Part shown: positions 43,909 to 50,973 of the stretch, in pieces
How positions within the stretch are numbered: position 1 is the first letter of the stretch
How the letters are laid out: each line of letters starts with the position of its first letter
Assembly: GCA_965205675.1 (NCBI GenBank)
Contig: OZ242186.1
Location: 768,001 to 832,000 of the forward strand
DNA: 64,000 nt
Reading direction: 5' to 3'
From: Nitrosopumilus sp.
GTDB lineage: Archaea; Thermoproteota; Nitrososphaeria; Nitrososphaerales; Nitrosopumilaceae
Program-made: the position numbers and the translations under genes
Notes under the pieces: model-generated
Databases searched by the model: none
What the model was told of the DNA's origin: nothing
Seen by the model: only the letters and a program-made list of their open reading frames with translations

Positions 43909-44730
43909 TTATGTTTTCATCTCCCATAACTCCATGAATTCATCAGGAGTAAGGTATCCTAACGCTGAATGAATCCTGGAACCATTGTAATCGATTCGTG
44001 CTTTCTCTAGAGCAACTTCGGCTTCCTGATAGTTTGCAAACTCGTACCTCCACAAGTATTCCTTCTTGAGTGTCTTGTGGAATGATTCGACATGTCCGTT
44101 TTGTTCTGGCGTGTGGTGCCAGATGAATTCGTGTCTTATTCCAAGTAGAACAACTGCTTTTCTGAAATCTCGGCTGTTGTATTGCGAACCGTTGTCAGTT
44201 CTGAGAATCAGTTTTGTGCAATCAGGCTTTGCAGTAGCTACTGCATTAATGATGCTGTCAATTGCAGTGCTCTTTGGAGCTGCCACATCAAATGAATGCC
44301 AAATCCATTTCCTGCTAAATGCATCAATCACGTTAAAGCAGTAGCACCATCTGTCAACCCCACACCAGACATATGTGATGTCTGTCTGCCACAACTGGTT
44401 TGGTGCATCAGGCTTGAATAATGTTCTGGCAGATTTGATGATGTCATTTTTGGTCTTTTTAGGCCCAATCCAGCCCAATTTGTGAAATATTCTTCTGATT
44501 TGTTTTCTGTTTACAGGCTTGTTCAGTTCCCTTGAGACTTGGGATGCCATGCGTCTGGTTCCATAAGTTGGCCTTTGTTTTCCAATCTTTTGAACTACAT
44601 CAGTTACTGCAGGATCTGTCTGAATCCTTCTTGGTGACTTTGAGTAATACCATTTGGATTTTGAGACTCCAATTAATAACAATGACTTGTTCAAACTGAT
44701 GTGTTTGTTCAGTTGATTCACTGCAGTCAT
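43909..44730 (-). CDS. IS3 OrfB (rve DDE domain)
   Basis: YGTRR, WQTDITY, TDNGSQY, NGHVESFHKTLKKE, RIHSALGYLTP. Confidence 0.94.
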   Translation of the reverse strand: MTAVNQLNKHISLNKSLLLIGVSKSKWYYSKSPRRIQTDPAVTDVVQKIGKQRPTYGTRRMASQVSRELNKPVNRKQIRRIFHKLGWIGPKKTKNDIIKSARTLFKPDAPNQLWQTDITYVWCGVDRWCYCFNVIDAFSRKWIWHSFDVAAPKSTAIDSIINAVATAKPDCTKLILRTDNGSQYNSRDFRKAVVLLGIRHEFIWHHTPEQNGHVESFHKTLKKEYLWRYEFANYQEAEVALEKARIDYNGSRIHSALGYLTPDEFMELWEMKT

Positions 44731-45017
44731 CTTTTCTGGTTCTCCAACGTTTTTTTTAAAATGTCATTGGCAATTGTGATCTCGCCGATTAGTTTTTTGA
44801 GGGAATCATTTTCCTTTTGCAGATTCTTGCAGACATCTCCGTTTGGTGTGCCATTTAATGATGCCTTGCCACCTTCTACAAATCGTTCCCTCCATTGGTA
44901 GAATGTCTGTGGATGAATATTGTACTTTCTGCACAACTCTGCAGTTGCAATGTTTGTGTTTAGTGACTCTAAAACCACTCTTGACTTTTCTGCTGATGTG
45001 AATTTGCTCTTTACCAT
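44727..45017 (-). CDS. IS3 OrfA (HTH)
   Basis: AELCRKYNIHPQTFYQW; ATGA overlap with orfB and an A-run near the 3' end. Confidence 0.92.
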   Translation of the reverse strand: MVKSKFTSAEKSRVVLESLNTNIATAELCRKYNIHPQTFYQWRERFVEGGKASLNGTPNGDVCKNLQKENDSLKKLIGEITIANDILKKTLENQKR

Positions 45018-45559
45018 GAGGGTAAGCCTCCCAAGTTATCTGAAAAGTGTATGTATGCTACCGGTCCTACTCTAGAGGGGACCAGACCAATACCATTAAT
45101 CACAAGAATCCCGGACCAGAATTTGCACCATTTGCCAAGAATCTCAAGAAAATAATTTATGACTCTCATGGTGTGGCAAAAATAAAATCAGAATCAGAAA
45201 GAATCCATGCAAAAAAGAATCTTGAAAGGAGAATTAATCACATCATATCAAAAAAATACACAGAGAAAAACTGTATCAGGTTTGTAAAAAGATTGAAACG
45301 TGAGAGAAAAATGCTTTTTACATTCCTAATTACTGGAACTGATTCACACAATAACACAGCAGAGAGGGCAATCAGACCAAATGTGATAATTCGTAAAATT
45401 ACAAACGGTCATAGAACCATTCATGGTGCTGATTCTCATAAGATACTGATGAGTATAAAGGAGACATGCAGATTACGAGGATTAAACTTTCATGATTATT
45501 CTTTAGAATATCTTGGAGATTTTACTTCAAAACTCTAGACAGTTACAATTTTTTTAGTA

Positions 45560-46577: not shown

Positions 46578-46654
46578 GGGATCGTGGTCTAGCTTGGTAT
46601 GATTCTGCGTTTGGGACGCAGAGGTCGCGAATTCAAATTTCGCCGATCCCACCA
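46578..46654 (+). tRNA. tRNA-Pro(TGG) with encoded CCA
   Basis: GGGATCG/CGATCCC-ACCA; anticodon arm CTGCG-TTTGGGA-CGCAG. Confidence 0.94.
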
Positions 46655-47209
46655 CTCAAATATAAAAAAGCTATTGTATAACACAACTAGATAATTTTTC
46701 TTACAGTTCACACTAGTGAAATATTGAATTAATCCTCATGTGATGACCTACAAATATTCCATGTTGAATCATTTAATCTAGTTATCTTGCCAAATCCCAA
46801 ACCTGTCAAACCAAATATTATAGATCAATATCTGAGTTTTGCAACAAATATCAAAAGCGCAGAGATATCAAAAAACATTTGGCAAATCCAGGACCAGTAT
46901 CGCAGAAGGTGGGAATAGAGACAGGTTATGCATGTGTTGGTAAATTCAGACCAAGGACATGCAGTGTTAATCCGACTGTCCTGTTTTTGTATTTTTTCTA
47001 TCTTTTGATTTTGTTTAACACATGGATTATTGCAAATTGTACGTTGGGAAATATTTGTTCCATCAATCACACAAATCCAATAACTATATGTGAATAAGAA
47101 AGCAAGGAAATCAGATAGCATAAAAAATGAATCTAGTTCCAAGGTTCGTAAATACTCGGCTCCAAAAAAGATTACAAACAAACAGATTAGGAAGAAACCA
47201 AAGAAAGGC

Positions 47210-48203
47210 ATGTTTGTGGGCATTGACCTGCACAAGAAGTTTCTTCAAGTAATAAATGGATGATGCAGGCAAAGTATTACAAAATGACAAAGTGGATAAC
47301 ACTCATGAATCTATCAGGAAGCATTTTGCAAAAATACCAATTTCTGCAAATATTGTAATGGAATCCTCATCAGTCTGGTATGACACGTATCGATTTCTCA
47401 CAGATACTTTGGGATACAAAAACGTCACACTCTCAAACCCATATTTGACAAAGGCAATTGCTACATCAAAAAAGAAAACAGACAAGATTGATGCCAAGAT
47501 ATTGGCAGATCTTTTACGAGGAGGATACATTGCCACATGTTATGTTCCAGACAAAAAGATTGTACAACAAAGACAGCTTGTAAGATATAGGAAAAAACTA
47601 ATCCAATGGAGAACATCTGTCAAGAATTCAGTTCATGGAATATTGTTACAGGAAGGAATCAGGATTCCAGGAGTTACATTCACTGAAACATACAACAGAA
47701 GACTCAAGGCACTAGGAGATTACAGAATAGACGGATTCTTGCAACAAATCAGCCACCTTAATTTACAGATTGCAGAGATTAATTCCAAAGTGTATGCTGC
47801 TGTAAAAGTTAATCCTGATGCAATTTTGATAAACTCGATTCCGGGAATTGGGCATTATTCTTCGCTTGTCATTGCATCAGAGATTGCAGATATTGAGAGA
47901 TTCAATGATTCTCACAAACTGTGTGCATATGCAGGAGTTGTACCATCAGTTAGAAACTCTGCAGATACAATACACCATGGCAGAATAACAAAAAGGGGAA
48001 GCATGACATTGAGATGGGTTCTAACAGAATGCATACACACTCATGCAATTCATGCCAAGGATAGTGACATTACAAAATTTTACAATCGCATTAAAAAGAA
48101 AAGAGGATCATCCAAAGCTGCAGTAGCTGGTGCATCAAAGATCCTGAGGGTGATTTATTGGATGTTAAAGGAGAGGAGAGAATTTGTACAAAATTATAGT
48201 TAG
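47210..48203 (+). pseudogene. IS110 DEDD recombinase with a frameshift near 47250
   Basis: MFVGIDLHKKFLQV lies in a different frame from MDDAGK...MESS...KTDKIDA...SIPGIG...AYAGVVPSVRNSA. Confidence 0.88.
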
Positions 48204-48393
48204 GACTGCAAGTCGCGTTGTAATTATTGAGGGACAAGGCCTCGTCTAATAACTGCGAACAATCCTAACTAGGATGAAGATAGCATTGAGAGAATAGTCT
48301 CGTATGGATACATGTCCGCATCTTTTGATTGAAACCATTCTCTAGCGAAAGCCATGCCCTGATGTATAGAAAGAGAGGAAATGTATAAAAACA
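48199..48393 (+). ncRNA. Putative bridge/seek RNA of the IS1111-type element
   Basis: Stem GTTAGGA/TCCTAAC encloses TCGC/GCGA, an internal loop and GAGG/CCTC; the loop strands match the insertion target. Boundaries approximate. Confidence 0.68.
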
Positions 48394-48910
48394 ATTCACA
48401 TGGATAATTACAATTGAGATCCTCAAGTGTATCTTTGAAATTACTATTGTTGATTTCTTTAGGAGAATAAAATCAGAATAATATTTGGAAGATGCCGGGT
48501 AATTACTTTCCCAAGTACTGGTATACGAATCAAGTAAAAATGATTGGCAATGATGAAGCCGTAACAATCATACCTGTGGGAAGCAGAGATGGTGTATTAT
48601 TACTTTCTAGCTATCTGAGCCAATCATTTTCTTTCTTACTTGGTTCTATTTTAATTTTCAAGAGGTTTCATATACGAATCAAAGGAAATTTGAAGAAAAA
48701 CAAATCATAGAAAGACAGTTCTATTTTTGTGGCTCTGGCATTCATTTTAGATAGATGAATGTCTTTACATCAGATACAATGATATCTTGGTTTGTAGAAG
48801 ATCTGCATTTCTGCTTTCTGTAGCCTGTACAGAACGATTGATATTATTACTTATTTGAGACTTGGGCATAATGATTTACAAAAATAAAATCTAATTTCAT
48901 TCTAAATTCT

Positions 48911-49855
48911 CTAACAGCAAAGCATTCTCTTTACAGTTCTTGGATTTTCTGCTCCAATTATACAGTTGTAATATACTGTCAACTGATACACCAACACACA
49001 AACCAACACAAATGATTTCACGTTGTCAAATCCTTTCACATGTACAGTTCTAATGTTGAACGTATCTTTGAATATTTCAAATAAAGGTTCAATTGAAACT
49101 TTTCTTTGTAAGTATAACTCTTGACCTTGTACAGAATTATAAAAATCTGCAAGTTTGATTCGCTCTGGTGGTGTTGATGGATATATTTTGATAGGACAAA
49201 TCAATCTCAAATGTCTCTCATCACTAAACTGATATAATGATTTATCATCATATGCTGGATCACATAAAATATTCTCAACCAGTCCTGAAAGCGGTTCAAC
49301 TATTGTATAATACATTTTACCATCAGAAACATTTGCAGTTGAGACATCAGCAGATAGTGGAACAACCAGTTTGCCAGTACTGCAACTCATATGCAGTTTG
49401 TACCCAAATACCCAACCCTTTGATTTTGAAAAACCCCATTTTGCATCTGTGTCAATTCCTGAGATTGGAATTCTATTCTTTTTCATATCTGACTTGTGCC
49501 ATACTGGACCATCTGCTTTTAGCATGGAACTATCCACTGATGCAGATATGTCATCGACTAGTTTCTCTGATACAAACAGACTTCCCATATTACTGATTAT
49601 ATCACCAATTGGCAGAACTTGGAATCTCCTGTCAATGGTTCTTCTGTTTGGAATTTGAGCTAGTCTGCAAACCTTGAGCAATTTATCATTGGTACCTCTA
49701 GTCGAAAGGAAATAATGTAATGTATTGTTGCTTGGAATTCTCATCCATGACTTTATGATGAACAGCTGTACCATCAGAATTGTAGAGTATACGTACGGTC
49801 TACCAGGTTTCAGTATCTCCTCATACAAAGACAACATTCCCACCAAATGTAACAT
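48911..49855 (-). CDS. DDE transposase (IS982/IS5-like)
   Basis: SVDSS, DTDAKWG...GYKLH, CDPAYD, YLQRKVSIEPLF. Confidence 0.9.
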   Translation of the reverse strand: MLHLVGMLSLYEEILKPGRPYVYSTILMVQLFIIKSWMRIPSNNTLHYFLSTRGTNDKLLKVCRLAQIPNRRTIDRRFQVLPIGDIISNMGSLFVSEKLVDDISASVDSSMLKADGPVWHKSDMKKNRIPISGIDTDAKWGFSKSKGWVFGYKLHMSCSTGKLVVPLSADVSTANVSDGKMYYTIVEPLSGLVENILCDPAYDDKSLYQFSDERHLRLICPIKIYPSTPPERIKLADFYNSVQGQELYLQRKVSIEPLFEIFKDTFNIRTVHVKGFDNVKSFVLVCVLVYQLTVYYNCIIGAENPRTVKRMLCC

Positions 49856-49902: not shown

Positions 49903-50973
49903 AGACCTCTTGCGTAATTAGACATATTTTACCATATTACACAAATTCCTTCACAGCAAGATCCAAAGCTAAGAACAACTTAACACATTTCATGTTAACA
50001 TACAAGCAACTCTCAAAAAAGCCAAAATCCCTTCTCTCTTTTACTGGAGTGACTAGGCAACAGTTTGATGTGATTCTAAAGGATGTCAGAAAGAATCACC
50101 GTATAGAAGAAAAGAAGAGACTATCCAAAGCAAAGAGAAAAAGAAGTATCGGAGCTGGGCGAAAGTTTGATTTGAGTCTTGAAGACCAGCTTGTAATGTT
50201 GTTTGTTTACTATCGGATGTACCTGACATGTGAATTGACAGGATATCTGTTTGGATTAGACCAGAGCAACGTCTACAGAAACATCAGATATTTAGAGCCT
50301 GCAGTAAGAAAAACAGTTCCTATTCCTGCAAAACTATACTCTGATTCTAAAAAAATAAATGTTGTACAGCAACTCCAACTGTTCTTTCCTGAATTAATTG
50401 CAATGACTGATGGTACTGAACAACCAATCCCAAGACCCCAGAACAAAAAGAAAAGAAAGACTCACTATTCAGGCAAAAAAACACACAATAAAAAACCAAA
50501 CACCGTAAACCAGAAAGGTGAGATAATCCACAAACCCCCACATTCTTCAGGTAACATGATTATGCCATACTGAAAATCAGACATCCAGAACTGCCCGAAG
50601 ATGTGATGATATTTTATGACATTGGGTATTTGGGAGTGGAAAAAGATTTCCCAGAACAGACAAGCATTCTACCATACAAGAAAAAGAAAGGAAAAAAACT
50701 GACCATACATCAAAAGGAATGGAACAAGATACAGTCAAGAATCCGAATAAAAGTAGAACATATTATCTCTCAAATCAAAAAGTTTAGGATTAATTTTGAG
50801 ACATTTAGGAACAGATTGTGCAGGTATGATGCAATAAGTGATATCGTATGTGGAATTGTGAATTTCAAGACAAGATGGAAGCAAGAGTTTGCTGTGATTC
50901 CATAAGATTAGAAATTATTTGAAATTAAATTCAATGAAAGATAAGATTTTGTTTGTAATTACGCAAGAGGTCT
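49903..50973 (+). mobile_element. IS5-family ISL2-like element
   Basis: Perfect 18-bp TIR AGACCTCTTGCGTAATTA; inserted between the host IS left end and its transposase start. Confidence 0.88.
49992..50905 (+). pseudogene. ISL2-like transposase (HTH_Tnp_4 + DDE_Tnp_4), frameshifted
   Basis: FTGVT, GAGRK, DGTEQPIPRP, YSGKK, then DIGYLG...RIKVEH in a second frame. Confidence 0.87.

Follow-up and report, generated by a model that had tools for sequence, protein, structure and literature searches.

Does an insertion sequence (IS) of an archaeon carry an RNA that spells out both the site into which the element inserts and the element's own ends? The question is raised by element A, which lies in a 64,000-nucleotide (nt) stretch of the Nitrosopumilus sp. 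contig OZ242186.1 (assembly GCA_965205675.1, positions 768,001 to 832,000 of the forward strand), referred to below as the window. A preliminary description of the window, made from its letters and open reading frames (ORFs), had proposed an RNA-guided recombinase of the IS1111 type with a guide hairpin that matches a target inside another transposon. We compared element A with its copies and relatives and conclude, with a probability that we put at about 0.88, that it is an IS1111-type member of the IS110 family with a bridge/seek RNA that reads target and donor.

Element A and its recombinase

The segment 47081-48404 is an IS110-family element of the IS1111 type, 1324 bp long when one copy of the core is counted; its boundary can be slid by up to 4 nt, ATAA being common to both junctions. 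The 2.01-Mb genome holds 10 copies that are 98-100% identical, and their flanks part ways exactly at 47081/48404. The host of the insertion is a broken C-terminal remnant of an ISH3-family transposase. As had been proposed, this is an ISH3 frame: its 108-amino-acid (aa) fragment matches NCBIfam NF033541 with an E value of 4.5e-14, a score under the full-length cut-off because the frame is a fragment. Deleting 47081-48404 in silico gives ...AAATCCAATAATTACAATTG..., and the suggestion that removal restores the target is borne out by an identical uninterrupted site, ...CACACAAATCCAATAATTACAATTGAGATCC..., in a second copy of the ISH3-like remnant at genome position ~1159225. All sequences quoted in the preliminary description were located where it had placed them.

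The empty site and the occupied junctions have only ATAA in common; there are no terminal inverted repeats and no long target duplication. A perfect subterminal inverted repeat of 8 bp, within the 7-17 bp of the IS1111 group, begins 7 nt in from the left end and stops 3 nt short of the right end. Ahead of the GTG at 47090 the left end has 9 nt (129 nt if counted to the ATG at 47210); on the right, 201 nt of non-coding sequence follow the stop codon (48204-48404). Published marks of the IS1111 group are that the left end is short, the right end long and the repeats subterminal (PMC11187229, section 6; PMC11208160).

In the main recombinase frame, Pfam identified the DEDD_Tnp_IS110 and Transposase_20 domains, which in an intact copy score E values of 4e-25 (PF01548) and 1.8e-21 (PF02371); the 373-aa frame of this copy reaches 228.8 bits (cut-off 140) with NF033542, "IS110 family RNA-guided transposase". 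Its closest solved structure is the ISCro4 transposase (PDB 9t56; E 4.9e-12), aligned over query residues 43-364, that is, nearly the full length. The pairs GIDLHK/GIDVSK, ME/ME, KTDKIDA/KTDAVDA and NSA/ESG place D, E, D, D and a serine in register, residues that we take from the IS621 literature to be catalytic. The C-terminal motif GVVPSVRNSA keeps G, P and S and has A for G relative to the IS1111 motif GL-P----S/TG (PMC11187229, section 6). Pfam, NCBIfam, the layout of the ends and the subterminal repeat thus agree on the IS110/IS1111 membership suggested earlier.

A 2-nt deletion is found at 47252-47254 in the window copy and seven of the other copies; comparison with the two copies that retain an open 373-aa frame (genome 615808-617134 and 1108053-1109379) confirmed the frameshift noted in the preliminary description. 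Because of it, the window copy cannot make a full-length recombinase; with its guide module and ends intact, it could at most move in trans by way of the two intact copies. Upstream of MFVGIDLHK lies a Lys/Arg-rich extension of ~40 aa (47090-47209), which is open and similar in families A, C and relatives, where frames reach 367-379 aa against the 343 positions of the family model. The GTG-started frames of intact relatives are 369-373 aa long.

The target loop follows the insertion site

The window's genome carries two sister families, B (10 copies) and C (4 copies), with ~60% protein identity to A, as well as a B/A chimera and several decayed fragments. Among 100 other genomes sampled from the same taxonomic family, 23 contain the recombinase. 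Scanning public genomes yielded 77 loci, titled Nitrosopumilus, Nitrosopumilaceae, Cenarchaeum or Nitrososphaerota except for 2 loci from one "bacterium" record, which fits the label "thaumarchaeal" given to the element at the outset. A profile search identified a homologous 3' non-coding region behind the recombinase genes of relatives. The loops were extracted with a parser that demanded a TG-stem...stem-G hairpin and a TA core. It lost 4 own-genome hits in the first set and 1 hit from a metagenome-assembled genome (MAG) in the second, and 6 mis-parsed rows were excluded. The right-target set comprised 126 elements with 50 distinct 5'-strand guides in 103 guide/flank combinations, and the left-target set comprised 98 elements with 32 guides in 59 combinations.

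The preliminary description rested on a 12-nt match. TTGTAATTATTG (48218-48229) is indeed the exact reverse complement of the junction-spanning CAATAATTACAA, and a junction-spanning match of at least 12 nt in either sense arose at a frequency of 0.00115 in 20000 dinucleotide-preserving shuffles of 48151-48404. Taken alone, this result is suggestive and not decisive. Across relatives, we scored the right target as the longest run common to the reverse complement of the guide 5' strand and the 14 nt from the right core. Own pairs had a mean longest run of 6.04 nt versus 3.45 +/- 0.14 after permutation (maximum 4.09; 0 of 20000 permutations reached the observed value), and runs of at least 7 nt occurred in 55 of 103 own pairs versus 75 of 5047 foreign pairs. 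In the control with the sense strand of the guide, the values were 3.71 versus 3.29. The left target, scored by comparing the 5 nt ahead of TA in the 3' strand with the 5 nt ahead of the left core, behaved alike, with 3.14 of 5 anchored matches versus 1.31 +/- 0.17 after permutation, a value that none of 20000 permutations reached. The 3' loop strand, noted earlier as TCTAATAA and located at 48245-48252, matches the left target of the window copy at 6 of 7 positions over UCUAA-UA. The covariation of guide and target that the preliminary description had called for is thus positive on both sides.

These data bear on the view that the protein alone picks the site and that complementarity between loop and target is a product of chance or of AT-richness. 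The genome has a G+C content of 33.7%, the target is AT-rich, and matches of at least 7 nt occur in 1.5% of foreign pairs, all of which speak for this view. However, relatives whose recombinases are 79-86% identical to the query (for example L081, L091, L092 and L110) have different loops and sit at correspondingly different sites: the guide, written as its reverse complement, reads ACAATCATAA at L091, ACATACAAAA at L110 and TAAATTTTAA at L081, and the flanks read TACAATCATAAC, TACATACAAAAA and TAAATTTTAGTG, respectively. Together with permutations that never reached the observed value and a shuffle P of ~0.001, this makes such a view scarcely credible.

TAATTA[C/T]A adjoins the right side of all 10 A copies; the same loop is therefore not found at unrelated sites. 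The left targets of A are TCCAA, TCTAA, ATGAA, ACTAA and GGGAA, compared to UCUAA in the guide, and we read the target of A as YNNAA-TA-ATTAYA. It had been suggested that the guide might be aimed at ISH3 elements, which did not hold: four ISH3-like copies carry the site, two of them occupied (the window copy and genome 1664871) and two empty. Its aim is a short motif that is present in ISH3 copies only incidentally, ISH3 being one of several hosts.

Within the loop, the segment complementary to the top strand lies 5' of the segment complementary to the bottom strand, with an overlap at the core. We considered a core of 3 nt (TAA or ATA) and dropped it, TA being the sole dinucleotide common to both junctions of A, B and most relatives; the right junction reads TT or TG in a few relatives (the L094-L108 group and L078). 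The core of IS621 is CT. In contigs of two of the DNA runs, X2 and X4, the sequence is identical to the window up to 48219 and then continues into a different guide (AGAGTTTT); it is precisely at the target loop's first variable base that the strains start to diverge.

The donor loop and the RNA fold

A second module reads the element's own ends. In 31 of 34 element types, the 5 nt before UA in its 3' strand equal the last 5 nt of the right end, for which we observed the states ATGGA, ATAGA and ATGGG. Left-end nt 3-7 are complementary to its 5' strand, and the covarying states are ACCAT/AUGGU, GTCAT/AUGAC, ATCAT/AUGAU and GCTAT/AUAGC. Element A's own pair, ACTAT/AUAGC, matches at 4 of 5 positions. 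In the two types that match at only 3 of 5, the RNA is A-type (AUAGC) and the left end B-type (ACCAT), as in the B/A chimeras described below. The heptamer ATGGATA, which the preliminary description had compared to a circle junction and placed within a stem, does serve as the donor guide to the right end, but it lies in the 3' strand of the second internal loop. Covariation thus extends to the right and left donor ends.

We aligned 35 distinct sequences. The fold predicted from them by RNAalifold has four helices and a total of 22 pairs, and compensatory changes are seen in 15 of these pairs. Paired cells made up 96.2% versus 87.1% with shuffled partners, a value that 0 of 500 shuffles reached, and fell to 32-46% when partners were slid by 1-3 columns. 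At three positions a G.U pair is present in 34 of 35 sequences, and these near-invariant G.U pairs assign the fold to the + strand. The two modules are homologous and built alike: a basal stem encloses a 5' strand of ~10 nt, a small hairpin opened by U.G/G-C and a 3' strand of ~9-10 nt. Module 1 spans 48213-48258 within the outer stem P1 (GTTAGGA/TCCTAAC), which contains the recombinase stop codon TAG (48201-48203), so that the overlap of hairpin and stop codon noted earlier lies in a helix that covaries. Compensatory changes affect 6 of 7 pairs in P1 and 4 of 5 pairs in P2. The apical hairpin of the target loop was misregistered by MAFFT and was left out of the helix test; its compensatory changes (GAGG/CCUC, GGGG/CCCC and GGAG/CUCC) are not independent, since the parser required a hairpin. 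The predicted architecture, a target loop plus a donor loop, is that of bridge/seek RNAs.

Under strict filters, a covariance model built from this alignment detected the RNA in 3 of the 19 other genomes searched from the window's family and in 0 of 131 genomes from 33 other families of the phylum. No Rfam family matches the RNA, and the only Rfam match found was a transfer RNA (tRNA). The long second stem GAGAAT...ATTCTC proposed in the preliminary description was rejected: it is specific to the A subfamily and lies outside the conserved fold, being absent from families B and C and from other genomes. The conserved fold has a GGAUG/UGUCC basal stem with a small apical hairpin in its place.

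Proposed mechanism and alternatives

In the mechanism that we propose, the 5' strand of the target loop would pair with the top strand of the core TA and ~7 nt of right target, and the 3' strand would pair with the bottom strand of ~5 nt of left target and the core. In the donor loop, the 3' strand, which repeats the last 5 nt of the right end and the core, and the 5' strand, which would pair with left-end nt 3-7, would together hold the junction formed when the element excises as a circle, a step suggested by analogy with IS621 and ISEc11. The predicted circle junction reads ...CACATGGA-TA-ACTATATGTG..., and the RNA would bridge it to the target YNNAA-TA-ATTAYA while the recombinase exchanges strands at the TA core. 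Judged by the family, the guide probably acts as RNA, and circle formation and recombination at TA are likely.

Several observations weigh against this account. Matching is clearly looser on the left than on the right, with only 1-3 of 5 positions in family C, and 48 of 103 guide/flank pairs have fewer than 7 nt in common. The decayed fragments D, E, F, G and I (genome 1720655, 61015, 78075, 505707 and 1516998) fail to match their right flanks, as do the loci L113, L119, L137, L138, L151 and L157. Perfect matches to the 12-mer stand empty at nine places in the genome, two of which are in ISH3-like copies. The single-sequence fold is no better than that of shuffled sequences (z = -0.91) and is uninformative. 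Contigs of four DNA runs, which are blind to rare forms, contained no circle junction or excision joint, and 8 of 10 A copies, the window's among them, are frameshifted. In the same contigs, loose ends that read through the empty site were considered as traces of excision and rejected; they show both substitutions that mark the paralogous ISH3 copy without an insertion and are for this reason no evidence of excision.

The last of these points raise the possibility that the family is RNA guided while element A is a fossil, with all copies in this genome inactive and the pattern a record of past activity. The frameshifts, the nine empty perfect sites, the absence of excision or circle joints from the contigs and the setting of the element in a dump of broken IS elements would all be expected of a fossil. 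On the other hand, two copies keep the 373-aa frame open, and the 10 copies are 98-100% identical with an invariant guide module, which argues for recent spread. We regard an inactive element A as possible, though unlikely.

A different alternative concerns the nature of the guide, which could work as the element's own single-stranded DNA, as in IS200/IS605, instead of as a transcript. The covariation described above is a property of DNA sequences and is blind to whether RNA or a DNA strand does the pairing. However, the recombinase is not an HUH enzyme and belongs to the IS110 family, for which RNA co-purification and RNA dependence are reported in PMC11187229 and PMC11208160. The near-invariant G.U pairs would be weak in DNA, and the guide module lies 80-210 nt from the element end, away from the cleavage site. 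A DNA guide is thus very improbable, and a bridge/seek RNA that reads target and donor is the explanation that we retain.

A sister element aimed at the left end of A- or C-type elements

Each of the 10 copies of element B sits within an A- or C-type element, 8 nt in from its left end, between TAACTATA and TGTGAAT (equivalent to 47088/47089 in the window), and the B loops, AAACUA-UA and UUUUCACA, read that left end. A copies 6-10 are nested B-in-A composites with single-nucleotide polymorphisms (SNPs) in common; examples of B are L010 (G000:996282-1000601) and L006. At G000:754384-755700 (L013), a chimera joins the left end and N-terminal part of the gene from B to an A-like C terminus and RNA, still preceded by a 6-nt stub of an A left end, TAACTA. 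Chimeras are also present at L113, L141 and L145 in a Nitrosopumilus MAG. Such a chimera has the appearance of a nested B-A composite that recombined internally and thereby suffered a deletion. In a MAG, the copy at the same site carries a different guide, which has lost its match to the flank.

Near the right end of the element lies a conserved TATA-like box, whose positions have an A+T content of 0.93-1.00 over 58 distinct right ends, G+C-rich ones included. The box reads outward and is preceded by a purine-rich stretch. In archaea, the centre of the TATA box lies ~26 nt upstream of the start site. A circle junction, or the right end of B abutting A, would by this spacing put the start close to the GTG in the left repeat, which would give a leaderless recombinase mRNA. 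The insertion of B 8 nt into the left end would place its TATA box as far from the GTG of A as a circle junction would.

These observations could be read jointly: the Nitrosopumilaceae elements would be a natural library of quickly re-programmed guides; B, programmed against the left ends of its relatives, would be a hyperparasite that switches on or hijacks the recombinase of its host through the outward TATA box, with B-A composites moving as units; and the right-end TATA box would be an archaeal circle-junction promoter that yields a leaderless mRNA only after excision. This combined scenario is speculative, and we doubt that it holds as a whole.

Relation to known systems

IS4321 and IS5075, said to have been described by Partridge and Hall in 2003 (cited in PMC11208160), reportedly belong to the IS1111 family and have the terminal repeats of Tn21-family transposons as their insertion sites. 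Elements A and B resemble them in that the target lies within another mobile element, ISH3 remnants for A and the left end of A- or C-type elements for B; unlike them, B strikes a sister element from its own family, 8 nt from that element's end. The IS200/IS605 elements (TnpA, HUH) also choose their target by pairing with a subterminal sequence of the element; however, they use DNA-DNA pairing and differ in enzyme class and mechanism.

The closest parallels are the IS1111 seekRNA elements ISEc11, ISPa11 and ISKpn4 (Siddiquee et al. 2024, PMC11187229). They are like element A in the DEDD recombinase, the long downstream non-coding region, the subterminal inverted repeats, site-specific insertion and the order of RNA segments; section 9 describes a top-strand-complementary segment 5' of a bottom-strand-complementary one, the two overlapping in the target. 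Element A differs in its archaeal host (Nitrosopumilaceae), in the motif G-VP----SA and in the conserved Lys/Arg-rich extension of ~40 aa, which opens with the GTG in the left repeat. The bridge RNA of IS621 (Durrant et al. 2024, PMC11208160; PDB 8wt6) is likewise described as having target and donor internal loops, with one strand per DNA strand, and a 2-nt core, but it is encoded in the left end, upstream of the gene, whereas the RNA of element A is downstream. Protein similarity to IS621 is limited to the C-terminal domain (E 3e-9). ISCro4 (9t56), the best solved relative, is a distant, bacterial element. Archaeal IS110 recombinases have been catalogued before, with 662 reported in a preprint (10.1101/2024.06.21.599552). 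Our literature search, which covered titles and the beginnings of abstracts, found none naming a thaumarchaeal bridge RNA; the supplements of the main papers may include archaeal members.

Feature map and neighbourhood

Table 1. Features of element A and its insertion site, in window coordinates
Feature	Position	Strand	Basis
ISH3-family transposase remnant, itself broken	46781..47080, resumes 48405 to ~48500	+	ORFs, NCBIfam, uninterrupted copy
Left target TCCAA (47076-47080) and left core TA (47081-47082)	47076..47082	+	6/7 match to target-loop 3' strand UCUAA-UA
Insertion sequence element A	47081..48404	+	10 copies, flank divergence, uninterrupted target copy
Left subterminal inverted repeat ATGTGAAT, contains GTG 47090	47088..47095	+	Reverse complement of 48394-48401
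Recombinase N-terminal piece, 57 aa, ...MFVGIDLHKKFLQV, cut by frameshift	47090..47263	+	ORF and intact-copy comparison
Frameshift, 2-nt deletion relative to two intact copies	47252..47254	+	8/10 copies
Main recombinase frame, 315 aa, DEDD RuvC-like and Transposase_20	47256..48203	+	Pfam, 9t56 alignment
Predicted bridge/seek RNA, ~140 nt, ends approximate	48190..48332	+	Covariance model R1 full length, 136 bits; four covarying helices
Predicted target-binding module: P1 48199-48205/48263-48269; P2 48213-48217/48254-48258; apical hairpin 48228-48244	48199..48269	+	Covariation
Target-loop 5' strand UUGUAAUUAU, complementary to top strand of core and right target ATAATTACAA	48218..48227	+	Covariation
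Target-loop 3' strand UCUAAUAAC, same sense as left target and core TA	48245..48253	+	Covariation
Predicted donor-binding module: GGAUG 48272-48276/UGUCC 48313-48317; 5' strand AAGAUAGCAU 48277-48286; hairpin 48287-48302; 3' strand UAUGGAUACA 48303-48312	48272..48317	+	Covariation
T-run after donor module, possible archaeal terminator	48323..48326	+	Recurs in most relatives
TATAAAAA box, 21 to 14 nt before right core, possible outward or circle-junction promoter	48384..48391	+	A+T 0.93-1.00 in 58 distinct right ends
Right subterminal inverted repeat ATTCACAT	48394..48401	+	Sequence
Right core TA (48405-48406) and right target ATTACAA	48405..48413	+	Junction and flank comparison

The tRNA gene detected by Rfam (46578-46651, + strand, 58.3 bits) lies just upstream of the ISH3 remnant. 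Other transposase genes surround the site: HTH_Tnp_1 at 44727-45017 (- strand), a C-terminal fragment of the IS66 family at 45047-45538 (+ strand), DDE_Tnp_1 (314 aa) at 48911-49855 (- strand) and an HTH_Tnp_4 fragment at 49992-50573 (+ strand). A gene with seven tandem repeats of the 11-residue unit KKKTTSKKSPA adjoins the empty ISH3 site (L021 2901-3759; G000 ~1159300-1160160).

The A copies near G000 203873, 1108053 and 999101 have a common right flank (TAATTACATAAAATTAGTTTGGGGGTAATAGG...), which is a repeated sequence, and one of them has a different left flank; three composites have one common left flank and different right flanks. This pattern of shared and unshared flanks suggests rearrangements between IS copies. 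The motif (A/C)GGTCTAAT recurs at the right flanks of L036, L062, L063, L033, L057 and L080 (G001, G019 and G044), as well as at G000 ~754910 and 1109379, beside elements that belong to different subfamilies. The motif may mark where a further repeated element ends, one used in common as a target.

Implications

Element A is an archaeal addition to a known kind of element and leaves the picture of the family unchanged, the NCBI model already naming the protein an RNA-guided transposase. RNA-guided IS110/IS1111 recombinases are under development as genome-writing tools, and the characterised ones are nearly all bacterial. The compact predicted RNA of ~140 nt has target and donor loops that can be read directly from genomes, and at least 50 natural guide variants paired with their sites provide a rule set for the positions read: ~7 nt of right target, ~5 nt of left target and the TA core. 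Element B is an example of an element aimed at the end of a sister element. For the organisms themselves, the family accounts for much of the IS-driven rearrangement in these ammonia-oxidising archaea.

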